From Patescibacteria group bacterium (GTDB lineage: Bacteria; Patescibacteriota; Patescibacteriia; SBBC01; CAIJZX01), in NCBI GenBank assembly GCA_038065275.1, contig JBBTRH010000012.1, forward strand, positions 14,374 through 78,373: 64,000 bases of DNA, written 5' to 3'. Below the pieces are notes generated by a model. It made no database searches, had not been told where the DNA came from, and saw nothing but the letters and a program-made list of their open reading frames with translations. Made by a program: the position numbers and the translations under genes. Positions 13,234 to 33,342 of this stretch are shown piece by piece; positions within the stretch are counted from its first letter, which is position 1; every line of letters begins with the position of its first letter.

Positions 13234-13345
13234 TCAACCCAGCACCGCTTTTACCATCAGTATTTTGGATTTCGTTTTTGCTACCAGCCGCAAGATCAAA
13301 TGACGCCACCCTGTGATGGTTATCAAAAGTGGTGCTGGGTCAAGT
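13234..13345. mobile_element. MITE/REPIN-like element copy A (diverged) with terminal inverted repeats gtcaacccagcaccgctttt / caaaagtggtgctgggtcaag
   Basis: terminal inverted repeats ~15/20 matched; same family as copies at 30791-30903 and 33229-33342. Confidence 0.5.
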
Positions 13346-13606
13346 GTAGCGAATCAGCTTTAGTCGGCTTCGTTGTCCCCTGACAATTTTCAACGTGGAC
13401 GCCGCAACGTGCAAGTGCCGTGCCAGGATTTCTAAAACGGCGGCATTCGCTTGGCCATCATCCGCTGGCGCAGTCACGCGAACGACAAGACGACCGTCGC
13501 GTTCAACGATCTCGTTGTGCTTGGCGCGGGGAATAACCTTAACCTCGACCCCGTTAGAAGCGGATACAATCCTAGCCGGCTTCAAAGGCATGGCGCGTTG
13601 ATTCAA
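13340..13606 (-). CDS. DUF167/YggU-family protein
   Basis: pattern GVEVKVIPRAKHNEIVE..LVVRVTAPADDGQANAAVLEILA is typical of UPF0235. Confidence 0.7.
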   Translation of the reverse strand: MNQRAMPLKPARIVSASNGVEVKVIPRAKHNEIVERDGRLVVRVTAPADDGQANAAVLEILARHLHVAASTLKIVRGQRSRLKLIRYT

Positions 13607-13639
13607 CGAATAGCTACCGCGTGCGAGATGATATCGCTT

Positions 13640-14791
13640 CTAACGGGACCGGTCCGCCGCACGCTTGTAGACGGCCAGCGTTTCCCTCGCCACCCGTTTC
13701 CAGGAAAAAAGCTTCGCTTGCTGTTTTCCGGCCCGGCTGAGTTTCTTAGCCAGCGCCGGCCGGATCAGGACCTGGCGGATATGTTCCGCGAGCGCGTCAA
13801 CATCGTCCGGCTCAGTCAGTAAGGCGGCCGGACCGGTAATTTCCGGGATTGAAGAGACTTTGGTGGTGATGACCGGCGTCCCGAGTTGCATCGCCTCGAG
13901 CACCGGCAGACCGAACCCTTCGTACCGCGTCGGGAAGACGAAGGCCGCCGCCTCTTGCATCAGTTTCACTTTATGGTTATGCGGCACGTACCCCAAGTAG
14001 CGGACAAACGATTTTTTCAGCGTTTTAATCTGATCAAGTATCTCTTCCCCTCGATAGCCGGCTCCGCCGGCGATGACTAACGCTACGCCCTTCACCGCCG
14101 CTGGCCGCAATTTGACCAGGCGCTGCCAAGCCTGAATGAGGATGGTAAGATTCTTTCGCGGGTCAATCGTTCCGACGTAACAGATATATCGTGGCGGTAA
14201 TTTGTAGACTCGGCGAACATCAGCCGAGCGGTCGCGAAGTTTCAACAGCGCCGTGTCGGCCGCTTCTGGCACCACCGTCACTTTCTTCGCCGACACGTTG
14301 AACAAGTTCAACAAGTCGCGCTTGGTCGCTTTGGAAACAGCGATGATGCCGGCAGCTTTCTTTATGGTTTGCGGTACCAACAGTCGCGTCGAAGCGATCT
14401 GCGACGGGAACCATTCCGGATGTTCGTAAATCGCTAGATCATGGATCGTCACCACTGTCGGTCGGCCGTAGGACAGCGGCATGACATTGGCTGTGGCGTG
14501 GAAAACATCGAGTCGGTCGCGAGTCAGGAAGGCCGCCAGCAGGAGGTGAGAGTAGGCGAAAGGGAGAAATTTCCCGTATCGCGAAAACGGTAAGCGCCGG
14601 ACGGTGACGTTCGATCGTTCCAGGTCGTCGGTCACCGCCGCCGGCATGCGGTGATCGAAGTAGAGGTAGAATTCGTCGGTCCGGTCGATCGCCAACAGCG
14701 CCTTCACTAGGTGGAAAGTGTAATGACCGACGCCGGCCCGTTCACCGGACCCCGGGTTAAGCATTGTTCGACAGTTTATGCCAATTCGCAT
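13640..14791 (-). CDS. glycosyltransferase family 4 (GT-B, group 1)
   Basis: C-terminal EGFGLPVLEAMQLGTPVITT motif; ~380 aa. Confidence 0.85.
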   Translation of the reverse strand: MRIGINCRTMLNPGSGERAGVGHYTFHLVKALLAIDRTDEFYLYFDHRMPAAVTDDLERSNVTVRRLPFSRYGKFLPFAYSHLLLAAFLTRDRLDVFHATANVMPLSYGRPTVVTIHDLAIYEHPEWFPSQIASTRLLVPQTIKKAAGIIAVSKATKRDLLNLFNVSAKKVTVVPEAADTALLKLRDRSADVRRVYKLPPRYICYVGTIDPRKNLTILIQAWQRLVKLRPAAVKGVALVIAGGAGYRGEEILDQIKTLKKSFVRYLGYVPHNHKVKLMQEAAAFVFPTRYEGFGLPVLEAMQLGTPVITTKVSSIPEITGPAALLTEPDDVDALAEHIRQVLIRPALAKKLSRAGKQQAKLFSWKRVARETLAVYKRAADRSR

Positions 14792-14934
14792 AAAGCGATG
14801 TTATTCGTCTACTCGCCTCTTCCCCTCCTTAGTTGAGGAGGGGACCTGCGCGTAGCGCAGGCGGGGGTGGTCAGAGGAGAGAGGAGTTTGGGGTGAGAAG
14901 GGGGGTCCGGCAGTCGATGCCGGTGCGCTTTGGT

Positions 14935-15189
14935 TTATCTCGGTCCATACAATTCTAACCGAACCCCGCGGTAGCCGTAAACGATCAGTACGCCGCCGGC
15001 AAAGGAAGAACCGACCGCCGCCATGAGGACGCGAATAGGTGTCCATCCGAAGACCGGCATGGCGTGGACGTTCCACAGCGCGCCGAGAATGAACACCAAG
15101 CCGAATCCAAGTCCGATGCTGGCTAGAACAAATTGTCGGTGGAGATGCTTCATTTGCCTATAGGATATCACAAACCGCCACTCAATCAA
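14935..15189 (-). CDS. small membrane protein (hypothetical)
   Basis: two TM helices; weak support. Confidence 0.3.
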   Translation of the reverse strand: MIEWRFVISYRQMKHLHRQFVLASIGLGFGLVFILGALWNVHAMPVFGWTPIRVLMAAVGSSFAGGVLIVYGYRGVRLELYGPR

Positions 15190-15243
15190 GCGCCGAAAAA
15201 GATCCCTCGCTGTTGTGCTCGGGATGATCCGATTAAGGCCAGA

Positions 15244-16869
15244 TCACATCTTTTCCGGCGCCGTCACGCCCATCACCTTCAATGCCCGTTGGAGCACCAG
15301 TTGCGTCGCTTTCACCAGGTCGAGCCGGTGTAACCAGACTTTGTCCCCATCAATGACGCGGCAGTTCGTGTAGAACTCATGGAACTTGGTAGCTAGCTCA
15401 ATCGCGTAGAACGGCAGTTTCTGCGTTTCGTAACTCCGGGCCACGTCGTTAATGATGATCGGAAATTGCAACAGCGTTTTGACCAGGTTCAGTTCGGAGG
15501 TGTGCGGCGCCGATTTTGACGGAACCGGCGGGAGTTTCCCCACCTTTTTCAGGATACTACTGATTCGAGCATGCGCATACTGAACGTAGAACACCGGATT
15601 CTTGTCCGACTTTTCCTTGGCCAGCGTCAAATCGAAATCCATGTGCGTGTCTGCGCGGTGCATCAGAAAGAAGAATCGCGCCACATCGAGGCCGACTTCG
15701 TCAACGACTTCTTCGAGCGTCACGTACGTTCCCGCGCGCTTTGACATTTTAACTTCGTGTCCATCTTTCATCAATCGTACGAGTTGTAAAAACTCAATGT
15801 GCAGTTGCTTGGCGTAACCTAAGGCCGACATGGCCGCCTGGAGCCGCGATTCGAAACCATGATGATCGGCGCCAAGAAATAATATTTCCCGGTCGAATCC
15901 GCGCATAGCAAATCGGTAATACCGCAAGGCCACATCCGCCATGATGTAGGCATTGGTACCATCGGATTTAATAATGACTCGATCTTTATCGTCGCCGTAA
16001 GCAGTCGTCCGAAACCAAGTCGCATCATCCTTTTGGTACAACAAATCATGACTCTTCAACACCTCCAGTGCTTTGATATTTAGTTGCTTTGTATAGAGCG
16101 TGCTTTCACAGAACCACGAATCGAAGGTTATCTTGAGTTTTTTGGCCACGACCCTTTGTAATTCCTTAACCATCGTCTCCAAGATTCGCCCCCTGATCCG
16201 GTCGCGGATGTCGGTCATGTCCTTCAGCTTCAACTTGTCGATTTTCAACTTCCGGGCCAGATCGGACACGTACTCGCCTTGATAGCACTGGGCGGGGTAG
16301 TCGGTCGGAATCCCCTGTTGTTGGAAGTAGCGGCGGATGACCGACTCGGCCAGAATGTCGACTTGGCGGCCGATGTCATTCAGATAGAATTCGCGCCAGA
16401 CTTTCCAACCGTTCATGGCCAGCACGTTCGCCAGCGTATCACCGCCGAACGCGCCGCGACCGTTGCCGAGCGTCATCGGTCCGGTCGGATTGGCCGAGAT
16501 GTATTCGACTAACACTTTCTTGCCTTTGCCGTCGAGGTTGGAACCAAACTTTGTATCGGCCAAAATCCCCTTCACCTGTTTCATAATCCACTGCGGCTTG
16601 AGAGTAAAGTTAATAAACCCAGGACCCGCCACTTCCGCCTTCTCTAACATTGATGCTACTAAGCCTAACTGAGCGATCAAGTTGGTAGCAATATCGCGTG
16701 GACCCTGACCAACAACTTTTGCTAATTTCAACGCCACGGTCGAGCTATAATCACCAAACTGCGCTTCAGCCGTCGGCTCGATTGGAATCTCGACATCTTT
16801 CACTGCCGAATAGGCTTTGCCAATTGCCTGGCGCAGGAGTTTTCGTAGCTGTTCGTCGGGAAGAATCAT
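15244..16869 (-). CDS. argS: arginyl-tRNA synthetase
   Basis: class I signature ISANPTGPMTLGNGRGAFGGD and KMSKRAGT; ATG at 16869 (track start 16884 is an upstream GTG). Confidence 0.9.
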   Translation of the reverse strand: MILPDEQLRKLLRQAIGKAYSAVKDVEIPIEPTAEAQFGDYSSTVALKLAKVVGQGPRDIATNLIAQLGLVASMLEKAEVAGPGFINFTLKPQWIMKQVKGILADTKFGSNLDGKGKKVLVEYISANPTGPMTLGNGRGAFGGDTLANVLAMNGWKVWREFYLNDIGRQVDILAESVIRRYFQQQGIPTDYPAQCYQGEYVSDLARKLKIDKLKLKDMTDIRDRIRGRILETMVKELQRVVAKKLKITFDSWFCESTLYTKQLNIKALEVLKSHDLLYQKDDATWFRTTAYGDDKDRVIIKSDGTNAYIMADVALRYYRFAMRGFDREILFLGADHHGFESRLQAAMSALGYAKQLHIEFLQLVRLMKDGHEVKMSKRAGTYVTLEEVVDEVGLDVARFFFLMHRADTHMDFDLTLAKEKSDKNPVFYVQYAHARISSILKKVGKLPPVPSKSAPHTSELNLVKTLLQFPIIINDVARSYETQKLPFYAIELATKFHEFYTNCRVIDGDKVWLHRLDLVKATQLVLQRALKVMGVTAPEKM

Positions 16870-16943
16870 GATTCTAGTATACACTATTTTCCGGAAGAAG
16901 TGCGTGCTATACTGAATGTGTCCCTATCACTGACTACATCGAC

Positions 16944-17312
16944 ATGAAAAAGAGATTCTACCTGGTAATGCTTTCCGTTTTTTTAGTCTTGAGTCTTGGA
17001 GTGACGTATGGCCGAACCGGTTTCTATGACAACCGCTGTCACCAACCGAAACAAACAGTTACCTATGGAACTACCGTGTACACGATTGCCCCGTGTAGCG
17101 GAACAACCATCCAAGAAAAACGTTTTGGATTTCCCGCTTTCTATACATTTGGCCATCAAGCTGAGTTCGGCATAGCACCAAGCTTATTTGACACTGGTTT
17201 GTTTATTCTGAATTTGCTCTGGATCGGCACGGTGAGTTTTCTCGCCGCCGTATTCACGCTACCTCGGAAGAAGCAGTTGCCATCTCCAACACCGACATCT
17301 GATCATACGTAG
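16944..17312 (+). CDS. secreted/anchored hypothetical protein (signal peptide plus C-terminal TM); lower GC than neighbours
   Basis: N-terminal signal MKKRFYLVMLSVFLVLSLGV, Cys pair, C-terminal hydrophobic helix. Confidence 0.4.
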   Translation: MKKRFYLVMLSVFLVLSLGVTYGRTGFYDNRCHQPKQTVTYGTTVYTIAPCSGTTIQEKRFGFPAFYTFGHQAEFGIAPSLFDTGLFILNLLWIGTVSFLAAVFTLPRKKQLPSPTPTSDHT

Positions 17313-17329
17313 TATTCATTTCGTCCGTT

Positions 17330-17776
17330 ATGCCGAACTACGCCACCAACCGCGAAGCTTTCCATAACTACGAAATCCTCGAAAAAATCGAGGCCGGTGT
17401 TGTCTTGACCGGCGCGGAGGTGAAATCGGTCAAGAACGGCAACGTCTCGTTGAAAGGGAGCTACGCCGCCATCCAGCAATCCCAGCTCCAACTCCTGAAC
17501 ATGCACATCGGCCACTACAAACCGGCTGGACCATTAAAAATCGATACCGACCGCTCCCGACGTTTACTCATCCGGCGCACGGACATCGACCGCTTCATCG
17601 GCAAAATCCACTCCACCGGCCTGACCCTCGTTCCTCTTTCCGTTTACAGCAAGAGCGGATTAATTAAGGTCGAACTCGGCCTCGGCCGCGGTAAAAAATC
17701 TTATGACAAACGCGCCAGTATTAAGAAACGGGAAACGAACCGACAGATTGGCAGAGCGATGAGGGTGAAAGCATAA
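17330..17776 (+). CDS. smpB: SsrA-binding protein SmpB
   Basis: N-terminal NREAFHNYEILEKIEAGVVLTGAEVKSVK...GSYA is the SmpB signature. Confidence 0.9.
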   Translation: MPNYATNREAFHNYEILEKIEAGVVLTGAEVKSVKNGNVSLKGSYAAIQQSQLQLLNMHIGHYKPAGPLKIDTDRSRRLLIRRTDIDRFIGKIHSTGLTLVPLSVYSKSGLIKVELGLGRGKKSYDKRASIKKRETNRQIGRAMRVKA

Positions 17777-17808
17777 AGAATCGTGTTCCTACTAAGGCTA
17801 ATGTCGAA

Positions 17809-19476
17809 TTGTTATCTCGCATGAAGCATCGTCGGTATTGGCTACTCGCCGGACTCATTCTCTCCGCCGGTTTGGCGTTCCAAATCGCCGGCGCCTGGCA
17901 GGACGGCATGACCTCGGACGAAGGCAATCACCTGGCCGCGGGCGTGGTCTACTGGCAGACCGGAAATTTTACCTGGAATCCAGCCCACCCACCGTTGGTG
18001 AAATTGATGGCGGCGGTCCCGCTTCAAATCGGCCGAATGGTGTACGTCAATACCGCCTGGAGAGCCTGGCAGATACAATATCTCCCCGGCCTCATTACTA
18101 ACCTGTTCTACGATCAGACCGGCATAGCTCGCCCGCAATTGTTGTTCTTCCTGGGCCGCCTGCCGGTTTTAGCCTTTTGGCTGTTGCTCGGAATTCTTCT
18201 GTTTTGTTGGTCACGATCAAGATGGGGTTTTGGCGCAACGTTTTTGACGTTAGGGGTTTATGTGTTCGATCCGAATTTTCTCGGCCATGGCCATCTGATC
18301 AACACCGACGTGCCGGTGACGGCCATGATTTTTGCCACCCTCTGGGCGGCCGACCGGTATTTCCGTTCTCCAAAGCTGAAACCGTTGCTCCTATTGGCTT
18401 TGTTGTTTGGTCTAACGCAGGTAACAAAATTTTCCGCGGTCATCCTCTGGCCCATCGTGTTGGCCTTGGGAGTGCTCAAGATCTGGACCAGTCGCGGTGA
18501 GTTTCGCTGGCGGCAATGGTTGATGATGGCTGGCGCACTGGTCGCGGTGACGGGCGGAATTATCTGGACGACCTACGGTTTCGAAGCCCGTCGATTGCAT
18601 GTTTCGGGCTCTAGTCCGCGGCGGATCGTCAGAATGGTCAGCGCCATGGCCATCCCCTATCCAGCCGCCAGTTACTGGCGCGGTTTATACGACGTCATCA
18701 TACATAATGAGGGCGGTCACACATCGTACCTGAACGGCCAAACAACGACCAATGGGCAATGGAACTATTTCCCGGAGGCGCTGGCCTTGAAGACGCCGCT
18801 GTTGACCTTGGTGTTGTTCGCGATTTGGATGGCGGCCGGCGGCCGCACGTTGTACGGCGCGCTCCGCCGTCGGCCGTGGCGGCGTCCGTCGTTCGATGTC
18901 TGGGTACTTGGGCTGACGCCGGTGGTGATATTTACCATCAGCATTATCAGCAACCTCAACATCGGTCTCCGCCACATTTTTCCCATTTATCCCTTCATCT
19001 TCCTGGCGATCGGGAGCCTGGCCACGCTGAGCTGGCCGATGTTCCGTCACTACGGTGCCGCGCTCATTTCCGGGCTAACCGTCATCGCTCTGATCATCGC
19101 CTGGCGAGCATGGCCCAACACTATCGGCTACTTTAACGCCTTCGCCGGCGGCACGAACGGCGGCCATCGCTACCTCCTCGATTCGAACGTCGATTGGGGC
19201 CAGGACGTTTGGCGCCTCCGCCGTTTTCTCGATCAACAACAATTTCCGCTGGTGCGGATCCAATTATTCACTTCTGTCCCAACCGGTAAAATATTTCCCG
19301 AGTCGGATCACCTCATCCGCGACGCCGACATCGCCGCTGGAGTTCAACCGTCCGGGGTGATTGTCGTCTCGACCAACATCCTTTATCGGAATGGTTCGAA
19401 ACTGTCCTGGCTGCGGTCGCGGACGTCGAAGTGGCGCATCGGCTCGTCGATTTATGTTTTTGATTTTCGATCTTAA
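17809..19476 (+). CDS. GT-C membrane glycosyltransferase, family 39/ArnT-PMT-like (lipid-carrier dependent)
   Basis: ~12 TM helices; N-terminal loop TSDEGNHLAAGVVYW resembles the DE motif of GT39/PMT enzymes. Confidence 0.6.
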   Translation: MLSRMKHRRYWLLAGLILSAGLAFQIAGAWQDGMTSDEGNHLAAGVVYWQTGNFTWNPAHPPLVKLMAAVPLQIGRMVYVNTAWRAWQIQYLPGLITNLFYDQTGIARPQLLFFLGRLPVLAFWLLLGILLFCWSRSRWGFGATFLTLGVYVFDPNFLGHGHLINTDVPVTAMIFATLWAADRYFRSPKLKPLLLLALLFGLTQVTKFSAVILWPIVLALGVLKIWTSRGEFRWRQWLMMAGALVAVTGGIIWTTYGFEARRLHVSGSSPRRIVRMVSAMAIPYPAASYWRGLYDVIIHNEGGHTSYLNGQTTTNGQWNYFPEALALKTPLLTLVLFAIWMAAGGRTLYGALRRRPWRRPSFDVWVLGLTPVVIFTISIISNLNIGLRHIFPIYPFIFLAIGSLATLSWPMFRHYGAALISGLTVIALIIAWRAWPNTIGYFNAFAGGTNGGHRYLLDSNVDWGQDVWRLRRFLDQQQFPLVRIQLFTSVPTGKIFPESDHLIRDADIAAGVQPSGVIVVSTNILYRNGSKLSWLRSRTSKWRIGSSIYVFDFRS

Positions 19477-19699
19477 ATTCTGGCCGAGGAAGAAATCAAA
19501 CATCACCCCGCACAAAACTGTGAGCGATTCTTGTTATCACTCGGCAAAGTAACGTCGTAACTGCTTTTTCAGAAAACTTTTTCTTTGACCCCTCGTCTTC
19601 GAGAATGTAAACGTAAAACATAGCGTTGAAATAATTAACGCCAAGCCTTACAACATTGGTCACGTAAAGTTGCTTCGCAACCACGTGGCGCACCAACGT

Positions 19700-19725: not shown

Positions 19726-19726
19726 T

Positions 19727-20443: not shown

Positions 20444-20454
20444 CCACAAACCAT

Positions 20455-20967: not shown

Positions 20968-21099
20968 CCATCCAGGGGTCACCCCGAGCCTCTCGCCGAG
21001 GGGTCTAACTGAACGGAGGTCAGGTCATTCCGAGCCAGGCGGCGAGAAATCAGCTCTTGACGATTTTCCCGTACCCTAGTATCCTATCCCAGCATTATG

Positions 21100-21232
21100 C
21101 CCCGTTAGAAATGAATCTGATGGACACCGCATAACGTTACCTCAGGTTTATCACTCTAATGGCTAGTCTTCTCCAACATTTCAACCCGGGACACAGTAAG
21201 ACTTTGACTAATTTCCTTCATTTCTAACGGGG
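21100..21232 (+). promoter_or_regulatory. long-range perfect 16-bp inverted repeat (ccccgttagaaatgaa ... ttcatttctaacgggg) enclosing ~100 nt and ending 2 nt before the rpmI ATG; candidate translational operator
   Basis: arms at 21100-21115 and 21217-21232 are exact reverse complements; the 3' arm covers the rpmI ribosome-binding region. Confidence 0.55.
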
Positions 21233-21233
21233 T

Positions 21234-21437
21234 ATGGCTAAGAAACTCAAGACTCACCAAGCCACCGCTAAGCGTTTCCGAAAAACCGGCCCTAAGAGAT
21301 TCCTGAAGCGCAAAGCCGGCCAGGACCACTTCAATTCGCGCGACCGCGGGGTTAATACCATGGGCAAGCGCCGTGACGTCAGCGTCAACGCGGTTGATAC
21401 CCCGGCTATTCAGCGTCTTTTACCAAACGCCCGATAA
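21234..21437 (+). CDS. rpmI: 50S ribosomal protein L35
   Basis: MAKKLKTHQATAKRFRKTGPKRFLKRKAG resembles the L35 N-terminus. Confidence 0.9.
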   Translation: MAKKLKTHQATAKRFRKTGPKRFLKRKAGQDHFNSRDRGVNTMGKRRDVSVNAVDTPAIQRLLPNAR

Positions 21438-21794: not shown

Positions 21795-21795
21795 C

Positions 21796-21830
21796 CCCCT
21801 CCTCATCTGAGGGGGTGGTGGGAAGTTTTC
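21796..21830. terminator. bidirectional hairpin ccccctcctcatctgagggggtgg plus T-rich tail, between rplT (+) and the YfhO gene (-)
   Basis: GC-rich palindrome followed by ttttcgttactttatttt. Confidence 0.5.
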
Positions 21831-23946: not shown

Positions 23947-24034
23947 TTATCCCGCCCGGTTCAATAGGACGAATCGAATGACGGACCCAGGGGGATTTGT
24001 CCGGCAGAGCCGGATCCGGCCTGTCCCGCACACT

Positions 24035-24110
24035 GCGGACCGTACGGGAGTCGAACCCGTGGTCTCCTCCGTGACAGGGAGGCGTGTTAACCACTACACT
24101 AACGGTCCGC
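24035..24110 (-). tRNA. tRNA-Asp (anticodon GTC) with an atypical 9-bp acceptor helix (or a 2-nt bulge); no encoded CCA
   Basis: GCGGACCGT-TA-GTGT..ACAC-G-CCTCC-CTGTCAC-GGAGG-AGACC-ACGGG-TTCGACT-CCCGT-ACGGTCCGC-A; anticodon and T arms are close to E. coli tRNA-Asp. Confidence 0.7.
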
Positions 24111-24254
24111 ACTATGCGGGGCAGGCAGGGAGACGTGTTAACCGCTACACTATGAGCCCGCTCGGCGAATAAATGTTGTGACGTGCTATCCCCCGCAGAG
24201 TCGTAGCGAAGCGGAGACTTGTGCGGGGTTAACCACTGCACTTTGAGCCCATGT
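24111..24254 (-). repeat. two tandem partial copies of a tRNA 5' half (acceptor plus D-arm) immediately 5' of tRNA-Asp
   Basis: GGGCTCATAGTGTAGCGGTTAACACGTCTCCCTG and GGGCTCAAAGTGCAGTGGTTAACCCCGCA resemble GCGGACCGTTAGTGTAGTGGTTAACACGCCTCCCTG; neither folds into a complete cloverleaf. Confidence 0.5.
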
Positions 24255-25420: not shown

Positions 25421-25437
25421 GGCTAGAGAAAGAACGG

Positions 25438-26544: not shown

Positions 26545-26545
26545 G

Positions 26546-27929
26546 TTACCTCACCTCCTCAACGGTAGAAGACGCGTATCGCACCCGGATATCCGTGGTG
26601 CCGCGTCGACCTTGCCGGTCGCGGACCTCGACTCGAATGGTGTTCCATTCGGGCTTGAGACCCTTGACCTCGGTCGTCCATTCGACGGTTGACCCCGACG
26701 CCATGAAAACATTCCGCGGCATCTGGTCGTTCAGCCTGACCGTCAGCCTGCTCACTCGACGATCATCAGTCGCTTGACCGATCAGACGGATAGACGGCGT
26801 TGAGACCACGACCCCATCGTCCGGGGAAATGATCATCACGTGGGGAACCTCGTTCTGGCACCCGGTGGCGAACAGTCCAGCCGCGAGTGAAATCCCTACC
26901 AGTCCCACGAACACGACGGTTATCACCCAGCCGAGCCAGGGGCCTCGCGGGCGCGGAACCTCCCGACGCTCTTCCGGACATTCCGGCTCACGCTTGCGCC
27001 AAGGGTAACGCTCGAGATTCTCGGGCGTGTACCGATCCTCTTCAATCGCCGCCTCGCGCTCGGCATTGCACTCGACCATCCATTCGTTAGCGTCCCCGAG
27101 TCCCTGGTTGATGTCGCGCAGGACGCGACGTCCGTACCGAGCCACCTGCCGACGCCAGCGCCGGAACTCCTCTTCCTTACCTGGAGACATCAGCCGCAAT
27201 TTGTTGGCCTCCGTCATCTCCAGGAAAATCTGCCGCTCTCTCGGCGTCATCTTCAGAAAGTGGATCAGCGTTTCCGGTGTAGGGAAGAACTTGTCCAGAC
27301 GAATGAACTCATGCTTCTGCTGAGGAGTCCACCGGCCCCACATCTTGACCAAGGTCTTCCAGTCCTCGTCCTCGAGCCCGAGAATCGAACCGATGATCTG
27401 GTCAGACTGACCGAGACCAAGGGTGTCGATCACCCGAGCGAGGTTGAATCGCGAAGCCAGCCTGGCCAGCGCTGAGTTCGAGATCCGCTTGGCCATGAAA
27501 TCCCCGACTTCCCGGAAAATGTGCTTGACATCATCCACACCCGGTGGCGTGAAGCCTTCCGGATATTCATCCGGGTACTTCGGCTTGACCTTCATGGTCT
27601 CGAAGTAGTTGTTGATCTCGTTGGCGGCATCTGCCATGAGAGCAATACCGAGATCTTGGAAGATCTTCAGGGCCGGGGAGGCCTTGATCGCGATCTCGAT
27701 CGGCAGGAGCATGAAGCGCAAACCTGCGTCGACCGCGTCCTTGACACGATTTTCGGCCTCCAGGTAGAGGTAGGCCACCTTGTGCCACAGCATTGAGTGC
27801 TTGCGACGCAAGTAGTCGAGCGTACCGATGATGGTGGCGCGACTGATCTTCAGCGCGTAGCCAGTCCAGATCGACGAGGTCCGTTCGATGATCCCCGCGA
27901 CTCCTTCGTTATCGCGTTTCTTTGCCACG
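26546..27929 (-). CDS. membrane-anchored hypothetical protein: ~330-aa cytoplasmic domain, one TM helix, ~110-aa beta-rich extracytoplasmic C-terminal domain
   Basis: GTG at 27929 preceded by AAGGAAAGGAG; TM WLGWVITVVFVGLVGISLAAGLFA; the longer track ORF reads through the promoter region and is not supported. Confidence 0.5.
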
Positions 27930-28030
27930 ACCGACTCCTTTCCTTGCGACCAGGACGCTCCCGGCCTAGGAAACTGCCGTCCATGGACAACTCCGCCCTT
28001 CATCCGTGAAGGGCTGTTGATACATCGCAT

Positions 28031-28093
28031 GTTGTCAATCTGCGATCCTTTGCAGTTACCCGCAACACTACCAGATAATTCGATTTTGTCAAC
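28031..28093 (-). promoter_or_regulatory. conserved promoter/leader motif copy 1: -35 TTGACA (28087-28092), 16-nt spacer, -10 TAGTGT (28065-28070), then conserved leader GCGGGTAACTGCAAAGGATCGCAGATTGACAAC
   Basis: ~60 bp, ~85% identical to 30733-30796; sigma70-like spacing. Confidence 0.6.
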
Positions 28094-28267
28094 TATAGTT
28101 TTCCGAGTGAAGCTCCACGACTTTGCGGCCGTGCCATTTTGGAATACGGAGTTTTGGGGAGCGAAACTTTCCCCGCCACGAAGGGTGCAGGACAAGAACC
28201 CCGAACCAGTTATGGTTCGGGGCCGCACCGTCCCACCCGTTACTCCGAAACTATACGGCGGAGGCGG

Positions 28268-28340
28268 AACTGGTGTGTGAATAAAAAAACACCGCCCGCG
28301 AACGAAGTCCGAGATTCGGACCACGTTCGGGGCGGGTTGG
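28268..28340 (-). terminator. intrinsic terminator (stem ccgccccgaacg..cgttcgcgggcgg enclosing gtccgagattcggac, then TGTTTTTTTAT) followed by CACACACCAG
   Basis: hairpin plus U-run ~15 nt after the stop of the 282-aa membrane protein gene. Confidence 0.6.
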
Positions 28341-28349
28341 TGAAAGAGC

Positions 28350-29198
28350 TTACTTCTTCCCCATAATCCACGAGGAGGGAATCATGGAGGATGGTTTTCC
28401 AGGGGCGGGGTGGGTGACGTTGTTCATCACCCACATCCCGACGATGATGATGACGGCGCCGAATAACGCCACCGGTAGCAGGTTTTTGATCGGCGATGGG
28501 GCGCCGACCGGCACGTTCCGGAACAGCACCCACTGCGCGGCCGTCACCAATACCAGTCCGCCAAACAGGACATAGAGAGGCAGGATTGGCGGTCGCTGTG
28601 AAAGAAACACAGCGATAATCCAGACCAGCAACCCAACGCTGAGGCAGATCCAGATCAGGCCCTCGACGGTGTTGAAGAAGCCCTGCCAGACGCCGCCGGT
28701 CTTTGGGATGACCGGCTTCGGCTGGGTACTGCTGGAGGTACCTGTCGATTTGACTTTGCGGCGTTGGCGGAACCAGACAACTAGGGTCACCAGCGCTACA
28801 CTACCACCGATCCACGCCCCCCAGAACAGCATGTCGTGCGAGGAAAGGCGCGGCCAGTTGAAATGCAGTAACGTGATTTGCGTACTCGCATTCTTCAGTT
28901 TCGTCGCCAGGATCACGGCGACGATGATGGTCAGCGGGAAGGTCTTTTGCCATCCCGACGAATGTTGCCACCATCCTTGGAGTCTCTTGACCACGGACGG
29001 TGACGGCCGCCACATCCACAGTCCGTAGCCGATGGCTGACAGGCCGAGCGCTGAGCCAACAATCCGCACTACCGGATTGTTGAAGTGGGTCAAGATCGAC
29101 CAGAGAGCACCGATGATCAGCGCCACGACGATCGTTCCCACCACAATGATGTTGAGGGCGGCGGCGACTGGTCGCCACCCTGGAAACTTGAGAGCCAT
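28350..29198 (-). CDS. polytopic membrane protein (282 aa), paralog of 25438..26544
   Basis: ~8 TM helices; shared C-terminal motif; 19 nt downstream of the flotillin gene, so co-operonic. Confidence 0.5.
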   Translation of the reverse strand: MALKFPGWRPVAAALNIIVVGTIVVALIIGALWSILTHFNNPVVRIVGSALGLSAIGYGLWMWRPSPSVVKRLQGWWQHSSGWQKTFPLTIIVAVILATKLKNASTQITLLHFNWPRLSSHDMLFWGAWIGGSVALVTLVVWFRQRRKVKSTGTSSSTQPKPVIPKTGGVWQGFFNTVEGLIWICLSVGLLVWIIAVFLSQRPPILPLYVLFGGLVLVTAAQWVLFRNVPVGAPSPIKNLLPVALFGAVIIIVGMWVMNNVTHPAPGKPSSMIPSSWIMGKK

Positions 29199-29216
29199 GC
29201 TCCCCTCCTCTCGAGG

Positions 29217-30662
29217 TTACGAGGTCGGGGGAGACTCGGCGCCACCCACGACCTTCTTGAGTTTTGCCGCCAAGTCCTTCGGATCCCTCTCGCCCAGCTG
29301 TCGAAGCTCTTCGAACAGCGGGGCAAACGGAGTGAACTGCGCCGGCAACTGCAGATAGACGGTCCGACCCTCGGTAGTCAGACCCGTACGGTAGGCTTCG
29401 GTGGCGAACCACCGCAGAAACGCGTCGCGTCCGGCTTCATCCGGTTGCTCACCGATCGAGAAGCCGGTGATCCGTGATACCGCTGCCACCTGGTCGGCCG
29501 CCGCCACAACTTTGATGCGTTCAGCATCCGCACCGGCAATCTTCTTGATTCGATCAGCTTCGGCGACAGCCACTTTCTCGATGGCCGCCGCTTTGCCTTC
29601 GGCTTCCAAGATGGCCTGGTTCCTGCTGGTCTGCGCCTCGACCAAGCGTCCAGCCTGTTCGGCTTTCTTCTTGGCGAACGCCTCGGCCGCCCGTTCGATC
29701 TCGCCGCTGACTTCCTGGGCGTCCTTGACGACCGCATTGGCGATGAAGATGCCCCAATCACGGAGTACCCGACTCCGGATTATGCTCTTACCAGGGTCGT
29801 CATCACTACAAAAAAGCTTGTAATCATTGTACTTAACAATCCGGTCCCTAGGATTCACGCCCAGATCGTCTTGAAGTTCCTGCTGAATCTTATCCAGCAG
29901 ACCGCTTCGCTCGAACCTGACGATGTCGGCGACCTGGCCGCCCTCGACGGAAACGACATTGACCAGCTCCAGCTCGGCTGTCTTGGCGCGTATCACCGGG
30001 TCGATCAGGCCCTTCAGGTCGTCCTGGAAGTTCCGGGCCCGGGCAATCATGTCATCAGGCACGATAATCTGAACATACAGCGTGACGTGCAAGTTTATCT
30101 CGATTTGGTCCTTCGACCGCATCGATGGCATGTACGCCAGCTTGTCTGCCTCGTCCGGGGTGAGGTAGGCCACCCCCTCGTCCTTTCTCGCATCTCGCGC
30201 CGTAAAAGACGCTCGCGCTTCCTCCGCCTTCTTGCGCAAGGCCTGTAGTTCTGCTTCCGGGGGCTGAAACGGAAATTCCAACCGCAGGATCTGCATCGGC
30301 ACGGCGTGCCGAGTGCCGCCACGCACGTACTCGTGGTACTGCGTGGGAGTCCAGGCCGCCAAACGGAATCGGTTGGTCGGAAAGCCGACCCGGACCAAAC
30401 CGGGGTGGCCCTTACGAACCCGATAGTGCGATCTGCCATTCGCCGCCAGGTCATCGTAAAACTTTCGCCACGAATCATCGAGCGGATTGACCTCCACCCG
30501 ACAAATGTTGTCGCCATCGACGACGAGGTAAGCGAAGTTCGTCTTCATCCTCGCCACCCAAAATCCTCGATCGGCCCACTTGTACAGCACCCAGTCAATG
30601 AGCAGGCGCGCCGCCCAGCCCACGACCAGGATGAAGCCGAACCACAACAACCACGTGATCAT
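29217..30662 (-). CDS. SPFH/band-7 flotillin-like protein (YqiK/FloT-type): N-terminal TM anchor, SPFH domain, Ala/Glu-rich coiled-coil repeats
   Basis: ATG 30662 preceded by GAGGAG; TM MITWLLWFGFILVVGWAARLL; coiled-coil EAEGKAAAIEKVAVAEADRIKKIAGADAERIKVVAAADQ typical of flotillins. Confidence 0.75.
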   Translation of the reverse strand: MITWLLWFGFILVVGWAARLLIDWVLYKWADRGFWVARMKTNFAYLVVDGDNICRVEVNPLDDSWRKFYDDLAANGRSHYRVRKGHPGLVRVGFPTNRFRLAAWTPTQYHEYVRGGTRHAVPMQILRLEFPFQPPEAELQALRKKAEEARASFTARDARKDEGVAYLTPDEADKLAYMPSMRSKDQIEINLHVTLYVQIIVPDDMIARARNFQDDLKGLIDPVIRAKTAELELVNVVSVEGGQVADIVRFERSGLLDKIQQELQDDLGVNPRDRIVKYNDYKLFCSDDDPGKSIIRSRVLRDWGIFIANAVVKDAQEVSGEIERAAEAFAKKKAEQAGRLVEAQTSRNQAILEAEGKAAAIEKVAVAEADRIKKIAGADAERIKVVAAADQVAAVSRITGFSIGEQPDEAGRDAFLRWFATEAYRTGLTTEGRTVYLQLPAQFTPFAPLFEELRQLGERDPKDLAAKLKKVVGGAESPPTS

Positions 30663-30732
30663 ATCGGACTCCTCTCGCGCGTTTGGAGAAACCCCAAAGC
30701 CCGCGCTATTTGCGCGTGCTCGTTTATATTCA

Positions 30733-30796
30733 ATTGTCAATTTACTATCCCTTACAGTAACCCGCGACACTACCAGATAATTCGATTTTTGTCAAC
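30733..30796 (-). promoter_or_regulatory. conserved promoter/leader motif copy 2: -35 TTGACA (30790-30795), 17-nt spacer, -10 TAGTGT (30767-30772); the -35 overlaps the terminal repeat of MITE copy B
   Basis: aligns with 28031-28093 over ~60 bp. Confidence 0.6.
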
Positions 30797-30903
30797 CCAG
30801 CACCACTTTGGCTAAAACAGTGCTTTTTTTGACCAAAGTTTTCTATGTGGATAAGCAAGTTTTTCCATCTATCTGAGAATCAACCAAAGTAGTGCTGGGT
30901 CAA
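30791..30903. mobile_element. MITE/REPIN-like element copy B: 21-bp terminal inverted repeats gtcaacccagcaccactttgg / ccaaagtagtgctgggtcaac, ~70-bp AT-rich core
   Basis: 20/21 terminal-repeat match; the core is weakly similar to the reverse complement of copy C. Confidence 0.6.
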
Positions 30904-31775
30904 CCACCGCCTTTTTCCCACCCGCCGTGTCCGTCCGTCTTCAATTGTACATCACCCCGCTCATCCGTGCGCCAGATAGTCAAACCCGCTTGCTTCAGCC
31001 GCAACAGCGCCGTCGGATGCGGATGATAATATCGGTTTCCCGCGCCGACGGAGATCACCGCCCAGGTCGCATTCACCGCCTGCAACCAGCGCACGCTGGA
31101 AGAAAATCGCGAGCCGTGGTGACCGACTTTCAGCAGGCCGGCCCGGACATCGGCGCCGCCATCAAGAATCCGGTCCTCAATGTCGCTCGACGCGTCGCCC
31201 ATCAGCATGGCCGAACTGCCGCCGCAGGAGAGCTTCAGAACAACTGAGGCGTCATTGACTCCCCCGCCTTCCGCCGCATTGTCACCGACGATATTTTTCT
31301 TGGTCAGGTCCTGGGCTGGCCAGAGAACATCGAACGTGGCCGCGCCAACAACGTATCGCTGACCGGCCAGTGCGTTGGTAACCGGAACATGTTGTTCGCC
31401 GAGCAAGGCGTGCCAAGTTTCGTACGCCCGTTGCTGGTACGGCAGGCTCGTGGCGAGCACGCGGCGGACCGTAAACCGCTCGGCCACCGCCACCAGTCCA
31501 TTCACATGATCGGCGTGCGGGTGAGTCAGCACCATCAATTCGATATCGCGGTCGCCGGCCGGCAACGCTTGGCTTAATCGATCGACCACGGTGTCATCCG
31601 GACCGCCATCGATTAGAATATCCTGATGGTCGCTCGTTTGGATGAGAATGGCATCACCTTGGCCGACATCAAGCGCCGTGAACGTGCATGCCTGATATAC
31701 CCCCCGGGGGTATATCCAAACCACCGCCAGCAGAACAGCGGCGGCACTAAGTAGAAGAAGTTTTTTGCGCATCAC
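30900..31775 (-). CDS. MBL-fold metallo-hydrolase matching the ComEC/Rec2 C-terminal lactamase domain, as a separate ORF with its own N-terminal TM/signal helix
   Basis: LDVGQGDAILIQT.., LTHPHADHVNGL, HHGS motifs; overlaps the upstream ComEC membrane ORF by 29 nt in a different frame. Confidence 0.7.
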   Translation of the reverse strand: MMRKKLLLLSAAAVLLAVVWIYPRGVYQACTFTALDVGQGDAILIQTSDHQDILIDGGPDDTVVDRLSQALPAGDRDIELMVLTHPHADHVNGLVAVAERFTVRRVLATSLPYQQRAYETWHALLGEQHVPVTNALAGQRYVVGAATFDVLWPAQDLTKKNIVGDNAAEGGGVNDASVVLKLSCGGSSAMLMGDASSDIEDRILDGGADVRAGLLKVGHHGSRFSSSVRWLQAVNATWAVISVGAGNRYYHPHPTALLRLKQAGLTIWRTDERGDVQLKTDGHGGWEKGGG

Positions 31776-33186
31776 GAGTAATTAATTTAATTGCCAGGGC
31801 GACAAAGACCAGACCGCTAAAAATTGTTACGGCCGGGGCCAAGTAGATCAAGGCGTTCGGTAGCGACGCGCCGGTAGTAATCAACCACACAATTAACCGT
31901 AACAAGGCGTCACTCACCGGTACAGTCACCGGCGCCAGCCAGGGAATCCACAGCCCCAGCAAACTGACCGCCCCGACGGCCATTGACAGCGGAATCAACG
32001 GCAGGACCAGGGTGTTCACCAGGGGCGCCACTAGCGACAATCGCCCGAACCGCCACAGCAACAACGGTTCGGTCATGACGATGGCGGCCAGGGTGGTGGC
32101 GAGATTATCGCGCAACCCGAACTTGGCGGATACCCACGGCAAAACCGCCGTCATTGGTTTCGACAGCGCCACCAACCCGACCGTTGCCAGGAACGATAAC
32201 TGAAAACCAAGGTCGTGCCAGACGATCAACGGATTCACGATCGCCATCAATAGCGCCGTGTAGGCCAACAATCGCCCGACGTTGATCGGGCGGCCGATGA
32301 ACAGCCCGACTTGCACCACTACGGCCATGATCGCCGCTCGCACGACTGACGCCGAAGCGCCGCTCATGACCACAAACGCAATCAGTAATCCCAGCGCCGG
32401 TATCCACGCCCAGCGCCGACCAATTAACTTAACTAACCAATTGACTGCCATCGCCATGATGATCGTCACATTAAATCCCGACAATGCCACAATATGCGTT
32501 GTCCCCGTTGCCTGAAATGCCGTGTTCAGCCGATCCGGCATGCCGTCCGTGTTGCCGACCAGGATGCCGTTGAGCAACGACGCTTGCGGTTCGTTGTACT
32601 GCTGGCGGACGTAGGTCAGCAGGCGTTCCTGCCACCGCCCGAGCGTCGCCCGCCATGATACGAGATGGCGCCGGACAACATCAACCGTCAAAGTGGCGCA
32701 ACGGGCATGAACGCCGTGCGACCACCGCCGGCGTTGCGATATCTCGGTCAGCGCCGTTATTTCACACGTCACCCGAACTTGCGTTCCCGCGCGAATGGTC
32801 GGGATCGCCGGAACTGACACAAGAATTTTCCCAACCATAGGCTTGCCGCTGGCAGTGACATCAGTCAGTTCAAACCGTTGCGCCGTCCCGTCAATCGTCG
32901 ACGGCAGAACCACTTCGCCCTCGGCCGTCATCGTTTGTCCGACGTAGCGGCTGATGTCATTCGCCGCGACGGTCAAAGCGCCGCCCATCCGCCAAACACC
33001 GAGCATCGCGCCAAGCAACGCTACGCTCACCCACCGCCCGCGGCGGACGCTCAACAGCGCCACGGCGATACTGCCCGCCGCCACAGTCAGCGGTGTCGGC
33101 GCGCGCCAAACCTCACCGGCGGCTAATCCGGCGCAAAATGAAGTTAAGAATACAAACAACAGCGGCCTGGACATAATGTTGGCCAC
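31747..33186 (-). CDS. comEC: ComEC/Rec2-like competence membrane channel (DUF4131 plus Competence domains) lacking the fused lactamase domain
   Basis: N-terminal TM then OB-like region, then ~8 TM helices with ComEC-typical spacing. Confidence 0.65.
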   Translation of the reverse strand: MANIMSRPLLFVFLTSFCAGLAAGEVWRAPTPLTVAAGSIAVALLSVRRGRWVSVALLGAMLGVWRMGGALTVAANDISRYVGQTMTAEGEVVLPSTIDGTAQRFELTDVTASGKPMVGKILVSVPAIPTIRAGTQVRVTCEITALTEISQRRRWSHGVHARCATLTVDVVRRHLVSWRATLGRWQERLLTYVRQQYNEPQASLLNGILVGNTDGMPDRLNTAFQATGTTHIVALSGFNVTIIMAMAVNWLVKLIGRRWAWIPALGLLIAFVVMSGASASVVRAAIMAVVVQVGLFIGRPINVGRLLAYTALLMAIVNPLIVWHDLGFQLSFLATVGLVALSKPMTAVLPWVSAKFGLRDNLATTLAAIVMTEPLLLWRFGRLSLVAPLVNTLVLPLIPLSMAVGAVSLLGLWIPWLAPVTVPVSDALLRLIVWLITTGASLPNALIYLAPAVTIFSGLVFVALAIKLITRDAQKTSST

Positions 33187-33228
33187 CGAATCTGTCTAAA
33201 ATTAGACTATAACGTTTCTTACTTTTGT

Positions 33229-33342
33229 GTCAACCCAGCACCACTTTGGTTGAATTGTCGTTATTTCCTCAAATGCTCATTTTAGAACCAAAAACATTTC
33301 TTTGTCAGAACACCATTTGAGCCAAAGTGGTGCTGGGTCAAC
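33229..33342. mobile_element. MITE/REPIN-like element copy C: perfect 21-bp terminal inverted repeats gtcaacccagcaccactttgg / ccaaagtggtgctgggtcaac
   Basis: 21/21 terminal-repeat match; 72-bp AT-rich core. Confidence 0.65.

Follow-up and report, generated by a model that had tools for sequence, protein, structure and literature searches.

Correia elements (CREE/NEMIS) of Neisseria are hairpin-forming MITEs of ~105–155 bp with long terminal inverted repeats, and the family described here is like them in these features, in being very abundant in a small genome, and in a preference for sites immediately 5′ of genes, the element ends carrying sigma-70-type promoter signals. Correia elements duplicate TA, and we know of no cognate transposase for them. 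RNase III cuts their transcripts where the repeats pair (PMC10969869). The REPINs of Pseudomonas and Enterobacteria, with their RAYTs, offer a further parallel in their inverted conserved arms, discrete spacer lengths, dissimilar hairpin-capable spacers and long persistence, and in the presence of a RayT-like gene in the genome. Cognate REPs are defined by their flanking of the RAYT gene (PMC3337134). At the extreme ends, the likeness is to piggyBac and IS1380 elements, which have CCC termini (with the GGG end on the same strand) and a 4-bp duplication of T...A symmetry. IS1380 elements end in CC and are flanked by direct repeats of 4–5 bp. IS1380 is the prokaryotic relative of piggyBac, whose target variants include TCAA, TAAA and TATG, also present in the family described here (PMC10813416), and IS1380 members have outward promoters (PMC9330008). 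In the fusion promoters formed by insertion sequences, a -35 at the edge of the mobile element and a resident -10 at 16–18 bp drive the neighboring gene (PMC9330008).

A 64-kb stretch of Patescibacteria DNA, analyzed as a whole and referred to here as the window, carries at least seven hairpin elements, which most probably belong to a family of MITEs, small non-coding transposons that leave 4-base target duplications. The family is new; the kind of element is well known. Copies A, B and C are of the main type, and copies D, E, F and G represent sister families with different arms (CCCCGTTAGA..., CCCCGTACCAC...; four window copies). The coordinates, arms and target-site duplications (TSDs) are as follows.

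3873–3973: copy D, D-type sister family, 101 bp; arms CCCCGTTAGAGGCGA / TCGCCTCTAACGGGG; TSD TCAA at 3869–3872 and 3974–3977.
7776–7880: copy E, variant arms CCCCGTACCACAATA / TATTGTGGTGCGGGG, 105 bp; upstream of recO; flanks TCAA and TGGA, non-identical.
13238–13339: copy A, main type, 102 bp; diverged arms CCCAGCACCGCTTTT / AAAAGTGGTGCTGGG; TSD TCAA at 13234–13237 and 13340–13343.
13550–13647: copy G, D-type variant with three C, CCCGTTAGAAGCGG...CGCTTCTAACGGG(A), 98 bp; no recognizable duplication.
21100–21232: copy F, D-type, 133 bp; arms CCCCGTTAGAAATGAA / TTCATTTCTAACGGGG; TSD TATG at 21096–21099 and 21233–21236.
30796–30899: copy B, main type, 104 bp; one arm mismatch (AGTAGTG); TSD TCAA at 30792–30795 and 30900–30903.
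33234–33337: copy C, main type, 104 bp; arms CCCAGCACCACTTTGG / CCAAAGTGGTGCTGGG, perfect; TSD TCAA at 33230–33233 and 33338–33341.

Identical 4-bp flanks are found in five of these seven copies, and copy E looks like an old copy because its flanks no longer match. Copy G lies between a glycosyltransferase gene and a small minus-strand ORF (13340–13606) for which no search gave an identification. Together, the seven elements account for ~10% of the intergenic DNA in this compact genome; element sizes range from 98 to 133 bp in the window and from 35 to 171 bp overall. The ORFs that cross copy A are short (no more than 112 codons in the longest frame) and have no protein-family match. None of the elements matched an Rfam covariance model, either at the gathering threshold or at E ≤ 1, and a literature search returned no paper containing the element sequence.

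The original prediction had described only A, B and C, as copies bounded by 21-bp terminal inverted repeats that were perfect in C, with B and C in inverted orientation. These three elements are indeed present, the 21-mer GTCAACCCAGCACCACTTTGG or its reverse complement occurring at 13233, 30791, 30884, 33229 and 33322 (≤3 mismatches; 0 in 100 shuffles), and four more copies share their architecture with other arms. The supposed 21-bp repeat is really a 4-bp target duplication joined to a shorter inverted repeat: each of the three begins CCCAGCACCACTTT and finishes AAAGTGGTGCTGGG, the inverted repeat is ACCCAGCACCACTTTGG (16–17 bp across A–C; 17 bp in C), and the outer TCAA (TTGA on the gene strand) stands as a direct repeat on both sides. 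Over 21 positions the ends of C differ at two (GTCAAC vs GTTGAC). As predicted, the arms enclose ~70 AT-rich bases with no significant mutual similarity, and folding of these elements beats that of shuffled sequence (z -3 to -6.7). With the direct repeat as the criterion, all copies point the same way, and the inverted orientation of B and C could not be confirmed: aligned in reverse, their cores reach a z of only ~2.8, a score that some shuffles exceed. B and C do bracket the split comEC locus, in the form of two overlapping comEC ORFs (Competence/DUF4131; metallo-beta-lactamase).

Arms of the window elements were also found in ~80 metagenome or MAG loci, mostly of Patescibacteria, and the hairpin family is common in groundwater Patescibacteria. 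Rather than being confined to three sites, the 21-mer has matches in 16 genome loci, and 91 metagenome loci match a 19-mer taken from that arm, nearly all of the matches forming inverted-repeat pairs. Because the two database search patterns included TTGAC (or, in the first scan, GTYRAC), ascertainment accounts in part for the near-universal presence of a TTGA flank and promoter context in the hits. Among the 24 elements that these patterns did not select, 14 nevertheless had identical 4-nt flanks (permutation mean 3.0; maximum 8 of 10,000; p < 1e-4), as did 61 of the 77 pattern-selected elements; in that set the duplication was never 5 nt. The flanking 4-mers vary (TTGA, TTCA, TTTA, TAAA, TATA, TATG, CTTG), the duplication being usually TNNA and often containing TGA (TTGA, ATGA/TCAT, TTCA).

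Mobility is also evident from comparisons among related loci. In locus L027, a 79-bp CCCC...GGGG element is flanked on each side by TTCA, whereas the 99%-identical contigs L042 and L058 contain a single TTCA, which provides the insertion polymorphism between relatives that the original prediction had proposed as a check. For the window's own copies no such polymorphism was found, L108 being identical to the window. Whole elements recur at separate loci within single metagenome populations at 85–94% identity, the similarity stopping exactly at the TTGA/CCC...GGG/TTGA boundaries, and a related copy is inserted the other way round. Tandem stacks with one common TTGA were seen in L020, L053 and L057/L066, and two different families occupy the same orthologous TTGA in the window (copy D) and in L001. 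The elements are thus shorter than 500 bp and lack coding capacity, with terminal inverted repeats, flanking direct repeats and evidence of mobility, in agreement with the published definition of prokaryotic MITEs (PMC10969869).

A common anatomy underlies this family. Each unit starts with CCC, ends with GGG, and contains an inverted repeat conserved over 14 nt (CCCAGCACCACTTT for the main family), then 2–3 variable complementary bases and an AT-rich, unconstrained loop, which is nearly absent from the 35–42-bp form. Arm positions 1–14 are conserved at ≥94% in a position profile, while positions 15–16 vary in sequence yet pair in 95% and 81% of elements, respectively, with all four Watson-Crick types represented; from position 18 on, pairing is at the random level. 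There are two main size classes, ~38 bp (35–42) and ~103 bp (99–108), with unrelated AT-rich loops. Some of these features do not sit easily with a MITE, namely the tight length classes despite unrelated loops and the presence of the same 14-nt arm in hosts of 27–60% GC. In addition, at an orthologous site in L110 and L118 the arms match at 100%, two pairs of the inner stem carry differences on each side that preserve pairing, and loop identity is at the random level; a decaying selfish copy should be less well conserved than this, unless the site has been re-used.

In the 64-kb window neither an autonomous element nor a DDE transposase sharing these ends was found, and no such element turned up in ~0.76 Mb of sequence from related loci, where the screen covered unpaired arms and long-range repeat pairs only. 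Likewise, no matching transposase was found among the Pfam-annotated genes of seven further contigs. The sole transposase-like gene seen, at 58835–59410 in the window, encodes a RayT-like Y1 enzyme, and the hairpins might accordingly be REP doublets copied by this single-copy Y1 (HUH) transposase, inherited vertically and conserved by co-evolution, a reading that we consider doubtful. The enzyme matches Pfam Y1_Tnp (PF01797; 35 bits, above cut-off) with a visible HUH motif, and NCBIfam NF047646, REP-associated tyrosine transposase (72.7 bits, E 2.8e-20), although the latter score is below the curated cut-off of 80. RayT homologues occur widely among MAGs of Patescibacteria and Kerfeldbacteria, and it is in these groups that the hairpins are found as well. 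The layout, with a pair of inverted arms, spacer lengths in discrete classes and every spacer different, is as published for REPINs (PMC3337134). Arm conservation over very different hosts is also compatible with long vertical persistence. However, main-, D- and E-type arms were absent within 300–400 nt of the RayT gene in nine of nine loci (window, L002, L110, L113, L116–L120), and because the gene and its eight homologues have no flanking arms, the REPIN reading is left unsupported. Furthermore, the arms CCCAGCACCACTTT(GG) and CCCCGTTAGA have, by inspection, no internal palindrome, unlike REP cores. The 4-mers on the two sides of an element vary in step with each other, and only one copy is present at the empty site, which is the mark of a staggered cut and not of IS200/IS605-type single-strand insertion; to our knowledge, enzymes of the RayT-like Y1 class do not make target duplications. 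A better REP candidate for the RayT-like enzyme is another palindrome, AAACCCGCG[CG]TGTG, which abuts the RayT stop codon in L116 and occurs in the window as well. Of the MITE/REPIN-like character originally predicted, the MITE part is therefore upheld, by the terminal inverted repeats, 4-bp duplications, non-coding nature, sharp-edged multi-copy subfamilies and empty site, whereas the REPIN part is not supported, given the non-palindromic arms, the duplications and the unflanked RayT gene.

A transposing MITE would depend on a transposase supplied in trans, which would bind both element ends and make a 4-bp staggered cut in the target, with gap repair creating the 4-bp duplication. The CCC...GGG ends and the 4-bp TNNA duplication resemble those of the piggyBac/IS1380 superfamily, a likeness of end and target signatures only, which would suggest an enzyme of that type. 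The duplication would rebuild the target tetranucleotide at both sides of the element. Because of this regeneration, insertion in a -35 box (between TTGA and CA), a TGA stop or an ATGA stop/start would spare both signals, and copies at such regenerated signals would persist in a compact genome.

The placement of the elements can be examined in this light. Four window copies, A–D, occupy TTGAC(A) -35 boxes (copy A reads TTGACG), at the following promoter-like sites.

3845–3872, minus strand: site at copy D; TTGACA, 16 nt, TACCGT.
13208–13237, minus strand: site at copy A; TTGACG, 18 nt, TAGGGT; upstream of a 71-aa membrane ORF (13189–12974).
30767–30795, minus strand: site at copy B; TTGACA, 17 nt, TAGTGT; upstream of an SPFH/Band-7 gene (30662–29217).
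33206–33233, minus strand: site from copy C; TTGACA (TSD TTGA + CA), 16 nt, TATAGT, an 11/12 consensus match; upstream of comEC (33174–31747).

The 71-aa membrane ORF is followed by a terminator-like hairpin (12982–12960). At copy D, conservation in the relative L001 begins at GGGTTGACA. In two of the four copies the same TTGA also carries the TGA stop of the upstream gene, and the duplication preserves promoter box and stop alike: the TSD of copy B at 30900–30903 holds the minus-strand stop of the comEC beta-lactamase-fold ORF (30900–31772), and that of copy A at 13340–13343 holds the stop of the small ORF 13340–13606. In the 3′ TSD of copy F, the ATG at 21234–21236 is the rpmI start codon. 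Elsewhere (rnc/DUF456 in L110 and L118; parA/parB in L119), D-type copies are placed precisely at the ATGA where one gene stops and the next starts, and their left and right flanks change in concert.

Such placement raises the alternative that the inverted repeat is host promoter or regulatory architecture, i.e. an operator, or else a cruciform or RNA-terminator hairpin lying upstream, that is built into sigma-70-type promoters, bound by a conserved Patescibacteria factor and not mobile, which we judge very unlikely. A TAnnnT follows the TTGA at 16–18 nt in all four TTGA-flanked window elements, compared to 9 of the 58 other intergenic TTGA sites of the window. Of 81 unique pattern-selected loci, 64 have TTGAC(A) after the 3′ arm and then, at 16–18 nt, TAnnnT, with the ORF start a median of 34 nt past the predicted transcription start, although this promoter association is partly built into the search patterns. 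Conservation of the arms over hosts of very different GC content, and the pairing of the terminal GTTGAC hexamers via two G.U wobbles on the gene strand, would also suit a host function. Nevertheless, TTGA is a duplicated target that lies outside the repeat, and the elements that the patterns did not select are mostly at non-promoter sites with other flanks, one of them inside a stretch matching the bacterial 23S rRNA model. No shared function links the downstream genes (clpB-like region, recO, small membrane ORF, SPFH, comEC), and internal wobble pairs are found on either strand. Elements are also located between divergent genes, so that a read-through RNA hairpin cannot be general. In MITEs of this form, the long hairpin may still influence transcription or RNA as a terminator or RNase III substrate, by analogy with Correia elements.

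Finally, integron attC-like recombination sites (attC sites span 57–141 bp) or TIGR-Tas guide-RNA units are scarcely credible explanations: a conserved structure, stem sequences that vary between families and an overlapping size range recall the former, and stem-loop tigRNAs are known from candidate phyla radiation (CPR) bacteria, but complementary R''/R' boxes (RYYYAAC/GTTRRRY) are absent, with GTTGAC read at either end on the same strand, the elements lie 2–9 kb apart amid housekeeping genes and not in a cassette array, the window Pfam hits include no integrase or tas gene, no box C/D motifs were noticed by inspection, and the elements have target duplications.

As a MITE family, the elements differ from each of the systems that they resemble. 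In contrast to Correia elements, which are limited to one genus, the family spans hosts of 27–60% GC; its repeat sequence is unrelated, its duplication is 4 bp (TNNA), and its -35 box is the regenerated target, outside the element. REPINs are distinguished from it by its non-palindromic arms, the RayT gene left unflanked in nine loci, the variable 4-bp duplications and the clean empty site. Unlike piggyBac/IS1380 elements, it lacks TTAA specificity, and no such transposase was found near any copy or in the annotated contigs examined. In the fusion promoters of insertion sequences the mobile element brings the -35, whereas here the target duplication restores a resident TTGACA that the insertion has split, for which reason an insertion should be close to neutral instead of activating.

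Elements A, B and C of the original prediction (13234-13345, 30791-30903 and 33229-33342) are present, and all three fold into long hairpins with a stability far above that of shuffled sequence; the 21-mer named as their terminal repeat, or its reverse complement, matches the window five times with up to 3 mismatches and none of 100 shuffles. The perfect 21-bp inverted repeat proposed for C has to be shortened, because its ends read GTCAAC...GTCAAC on one strand, which makes the outer TCAA a direct repeat and leaves ACCCAGCACCACTTTGG as the inverted repeat proper. The cores, described as weakly similar, are at most that: no significant similarity was found among those of A, B and C in either orientation. 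The inverted arrangement of B and C is therefore not established, and the score of B against reversed C (z ~2.8) was exceeded by some shuffles. Nor is the family confined to three copies, as a scan for inverted repeats with the end motif recovered the same architecture with other stems at four further positions:

3873-3973: element D, arm CCCCGTTAGAGGCGA...
7776-7880: element E, arm CCCCGTACCACAATA...
13550-13647: element G, arm CCCGTTAGAAGCGG...
21100-21232: element F, arm CCCCGTTAGAAATGAA...

A, B and C are of the main type, D, F and G of the D type (G as a variant), and E has variant arms. The seven elements sum to 747 bp, or ~10% of the ~7.4 kb of intergenic DNA. B and C each possess their own target duplication and thus arose by separate insertions, rather than as the two ends of one composite transposon. 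The comEC locus (30900-33174, minus strand) consists of two ORFs overlapping by ~26 nt, one with Competence/DUF4131 domains (475 aa) and one with a metallo-beta-lactamase fold (290 aa). All seven elements lie to the left of the cumulative GC-skew minimum (34000-41000), and almost all genes stay on the minus strand across the whole window despite that minimum.

The features that define prokaryotic MITEs (PMC10969869) are matched by these elements, and this part of the original prediction holds: they possess a terminal inverted repeat, target duplications, an empty site and sharp-edged subfamilies. The four nucleotides before CCC equal the four after GGG in 14 of the 24 elements that were not picked by our search patterns (permutation mean 3.0, maximum 8 in 10,000) and in 61 of the 77 that were, a set in which the match was never 5 nt. 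A D-type element of a related contig (L027), TTCA[79 bp]TTCA, is missing from two others (L042, L058), each of which has a single TTCA and is 99% identical to the filled site across 240 flanking bases. Insertion polymorphism was thus found within the family; for the window's own copies, one look-up had no matches, and the other returned a contig from Hainich groundwater with 99.9% identity to the window and one from the Logan assemblies (ERR3858126) with 100% identity. In three metagenome populations, whole elements are repeated at unrelated loci with 85-94% identity, one related copy lying in the opposite orientation, and subfamily similarity breaks off exactly at TTGA|CCC and GGG|TTGA. Elements stacked in tandem have one TTGA in common. 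The arm profile, 14 conserved positions followed by 2-3 that are variable yet complementary and then by random pairing, is that of a terminal inverted repeat. The nearest GTDB genome is a 'Patescibacteria group bacterium' MAG, and its contig L001 is syntenic with the window at 67-72% nucleotide identity; at one orthologous -35 box a D-type element is present in the window and a main-type element in L001, homology starting exactly at GGGTTGACA. Only one other orthologous site was found, shared by contigs L110 and L118; the candidates B/L004 and A/L009 were rejected, the former because the flanking genes are not homologous and the latter because the flanking DNA could not be aligned. Copies of one subfamily with different duplications, which would tell true duplication from a cleavage site borne by the element, were sought among the elements, and no pair was similar enough.

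The window carries housekeeping genes, namely those for a ClpB-like ATPase, RecO, IleRS and ArgRS, smpB and tmRNA, infC-rpmI-rplT, comEC, a peptide chain release factor, ftsA/Z and nrd. The proposed genome-wide search for the 21-mer (with YR at two asymmetric positions) yielded 16 genome loci, mostly in Patescibacteria MAGs, Kerfeldbacteria included, and the match was almost always one arm of an inverted pair. The same was true of nearly all of the 91 loci that the arm 19-mer matched in groundwater and sediment metagenomes. De-duplication left 78 loci, of 27 to 60% GC, with 89 elements of the main type, 9 of the D type and 3 of the E type. Main-type elements form two sharp size groups, 35-42 and 99-108 bp, apart from a few at ~49-63, 80-90 and 114-131 bp, and D-type lengths fall at ~77-79, 98-102, 131-133 and 171 bp. 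The loops are AT-rich (32% GC vs 47% in the hosts) and unrelated between lineages; narrow length classes with unrelated loops point to a constraint that acts on length and not on sequence. Viral contigs contained no match to either size class.

The same 14-nt arm occurs in hosts from 27 to 60% GC. At the orthologous rnc/DUF456 junction, the arms of L110 and L118 are identical, whereas the loops match no better than chance and the flanking genes are ~78% identical; at two inner pairs of the stem both partners differ yet remain complementary (AAAG/CTTT vs AAGC/GCTT). Either the hairpin is under selection in place, or family members of 77-79 bp have inserted again and again at the sole permissive site; the D/L001 case indicates that site re-use does happen. 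It is conceivable, albeit unlikely, that the arms are kept across Patescibacteria by host-level selection as seamless intergenic modules, or else that they are copied, with 4-bp duplications, by a RayT-like enzyme. Under host selection, the duplication would keep -35, stop and start signals intact, and the 17-20-bp stem could act as a terminator, an insulator or an RNase III processing signal. Favoring such selection are the identical arms and compensated stem pairs at rnc/DUF456 despite a saturated loop, the D-type arm sequences on either side of a 23S rRNA gene, placed as in a processing stem, and a main-type copy that sits in the 23S gene like an intervening sequence. Both of the latter occur in contig L041, where a 90-bp main-type element (7763-7852) lies inside a stretch (6875-9918) matching the bacterial 23S rRNA model, and where the D-type arm sequences ACAGATTTTCTAACGGG / CCCGTTAGAAAATCTGT (4498-4514 and 9918-9934), in inside-out order, flank the 23S gene and adjoining LAGLIDADG endonuclease ORFs; this pair could form a pre-23S processing stem. 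In the alternative, the single-copy RayT-like enzyme of the lineage would copy the hairpins in a way that produces 4-bp duplications, which would be new for Y1 transposases. Either outcome, if true, would give the family a bearing on the origin of REPIN-like elements.

The original prediction also allowed that the hairpins are REPINs, which would tie them to the following gene of the window:

58835-59410, plus strand: RayT-like Y1 (HUH) transposase gene, 72.7 bits against the NCBIfam model 'REP-associated tyrosine transposase' (cut-off 80)

The presence of this gene, the 65 homologues of its protein, several of them source-labelled as Patescibacteria or Kerfeldbacteria MAGs, and the fact that REPINs also fall into discrete spacer classes whose spacers are never alike (PMC3337134) are in keeping with such a tie. 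Nevertheless, we consider it quite improbable. The arms are not palindromic REPs, and they flank the RayT-like gene in none of nine loci, the window being one of these, in which it occurs as a single gene amid housekeeping genes. Furthermore, variable, co-varying 4-mers and an empty site do not fit single-strand insertion of the IS200/IS605 type, and a different palindrome, AAACCCGCG[CG]TGTG, which occurs five times in the window, adjoins the RayT stop in contig L116 and may be the enzyme's own REP. This second repeat family, AAACCCGCG[CG]TGT(G/T), occupies 35432-35602 and 41351-41401 in the window and includes a perfect 36-nt palindrome (35567-35602); in L116 this motif (10602) lies 11 nt past the RayT-like stop codon, and a degenerate copy follows the L110 gene. 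The window's RayT-like gene is the sole plus-strand gene of its neighborhood. Two short perfect palindromes fall within its coding region, at 59067-59096 and 59127-59150, and the first is kept inside the L110 homologue (10253-10284). TIGR-Tas stem-loop guide RNAs were rejected, as inspection revealed no box C/D motifs, the window has no tas gene and the elements are dispersed; integron attC sites were likewise rejected, as the ends are not complementary boxes and form no array.

Among database matches, the 3′ arm is followed by TTGAC(A), 16-18 nt and TAnnnT in 64 of 81 unique cases, with the ORF start a median of 34 nt past the predicted transcription start, a context that was partly selected by the search, since both patterns held the end hexamer (TTGAC, or GTYRAC). 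Elements that the matched loci happened to contain in addition are flanked by TAAA/TAAA, TTTA/TTTA, TATA/TATA, CTTG/CTTG and TTCA/TTCA (F has TATG/TATG), and most lie away from promoter-like sites. A conserved promoter hairpin or transcription-factor operator with helical phasing, suggested by lengths that at first seemed ~10.5-bp periodic, was therefore dropped, because TTGA is the target duplication and the search patterns forced the TTGAC context. A function at the RNA level, suggested by G.U wobbles at the GTTGAC ends, was also rejected, since the direct repeat explains these and internal wobbles occur on both strands. Within the window, a -10-like hexamer lies at the right distance from all four TTGA-flanked elements (A-D) vs only 9 of 58 other intergenic TTGA sites. 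A and B have the preceding gene's TGA stop inside the upstream copy of their duplication, the rpmI start codon lies within the 3′ TATG copy of F, and three-C D-type copies sit exactly on ATGA-type stop/start junctions, at rnc/DUF456 in two Kerfeldbacteria MAGs and at parA/parB in contig L119, their flanks TGAT, TCAT and ACAT co-varying on both sides. We infer that many target 4-mers contain TGA and that duplication restores the tetranucleotide on each side; an insertion that hits a -35 box, a stop or an overlapping stop/start codon would then do almost no harm and be kept. F, with its duplications (21096-21236), stands between infC-side sequence and rpmI; a 3-codon mini-ORF (ATG CCC CGT TAG) starts in the 5′ copy, and the rpmI ATG stands at the 3′ foot of the 133-nt hairpin without a normally spaced Shine-Dalgarno sequence, hairpin-mediated coupling being one possibility for L35 translation. 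The B loop (30842-30854) contains a perfect DnaA box, TTATCCACA, on the minus strand inside a 13-nt block, TATGTGGATAAGC, which B has in common with L004 together with 15 nt of promoter flank, while the neighboring genes are not homologous. A DnaA-box cluster or origin near B was rejected, given 10 near-matches vs 7.3 expected and no window-wide enrichment.

Other structured sequences of the window were also recorded. The gene for tRNA-Asp (24035-24108, minus strand) lies inside a 28-bp, 86% complementary inverted repeat (24016-24129) that lengthens the acceptor stem by ~20 bp on each side, has CCC...GGG ends and no target duplication, and may be a pre-tRNA processing stem; the idea that the loops derive from tRNA, which this resemblance to the elements had prompted, was rejected, as none contains a tRNA or other Rfam signal. 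GC-rich 22-nt palindromes, CCCCTCCTNAATTNAGGAGGGG, at gene 3′ ends (12439-12460, 12500-12521, 14822-14843 and 21795-21815) look like a terminator or REP-like family apart from the MITEs. An isoleucyl-tRNA synthetase-like ORF (8739-12365, minus strand), with class I tRNA-synthetase and anticodon-binding domains, has a complete His_Phos_1 (histidine-phosphatase) domain inserted at residues 530-709. A weak Rfam tRNA match (62213-62279, minus strand; 32 bits, just above threshold, and not called by ARAGORN) lies inside or beside a GIY-YIG ORF (62150-62644) and adjoins a 32-nt palindrome at 62275-62338.

The genomes of Patescibacteria are very small and densely packed with genes, and few mobile elements have been described from them. 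Because no element matched Rfam, the literature searched contained no paper with the arm sequence, and Patescibacteria are absent from the text of a large survey of prokaryotic MITEs (bioRxiv 10.1101/2024.01.18.576219), we conclude that the hairpins form a so far undescribed family within a known kind of element. Seven copies in 64 kb amount to ~109 per Mb, a density within the range of the densest genomes of that survey (123 per Mb for Wolbachia). The family illustrates how a transposon can be tolerated in a compact genome, as whichever -35 box, stop codon or start codon is hit is restored by the 4-bp duplication. In practical terms, these lineages are marked by the conserved 14-nt arm, which is also a source of assembly breaks, the elements cause gene-caller errors because ORFs are extended into them, and they flag promoter positions in organisms that lack transcriptome data.

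Neither an IS-length element bounded by the same ends nor a DDE transposase turned up in the window, in the related loci examined or among the annotated genes of further contigs. A search for an autonomous partner, by way of unpaired arms, long-range repeat pairs with duplications and Pfam domains in ORFs beside solo arms, found no partner, and returned only housekeeping genes, a segmental duplication in contig L035 and rRNA introns. In their ends and target sites, the hairpins bear a resemblance of signatures, as distinct from demonstrated membership, to the piggyBac superfamily (bacterial relative IS1380), which is characterized by CCC...GGG termini and a 4-bp duplication of the T..A type, both found here too. 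The variant piggyBac duplications TCAA, TAAA and TATG (PMC10813416) all occur among these elements as well.
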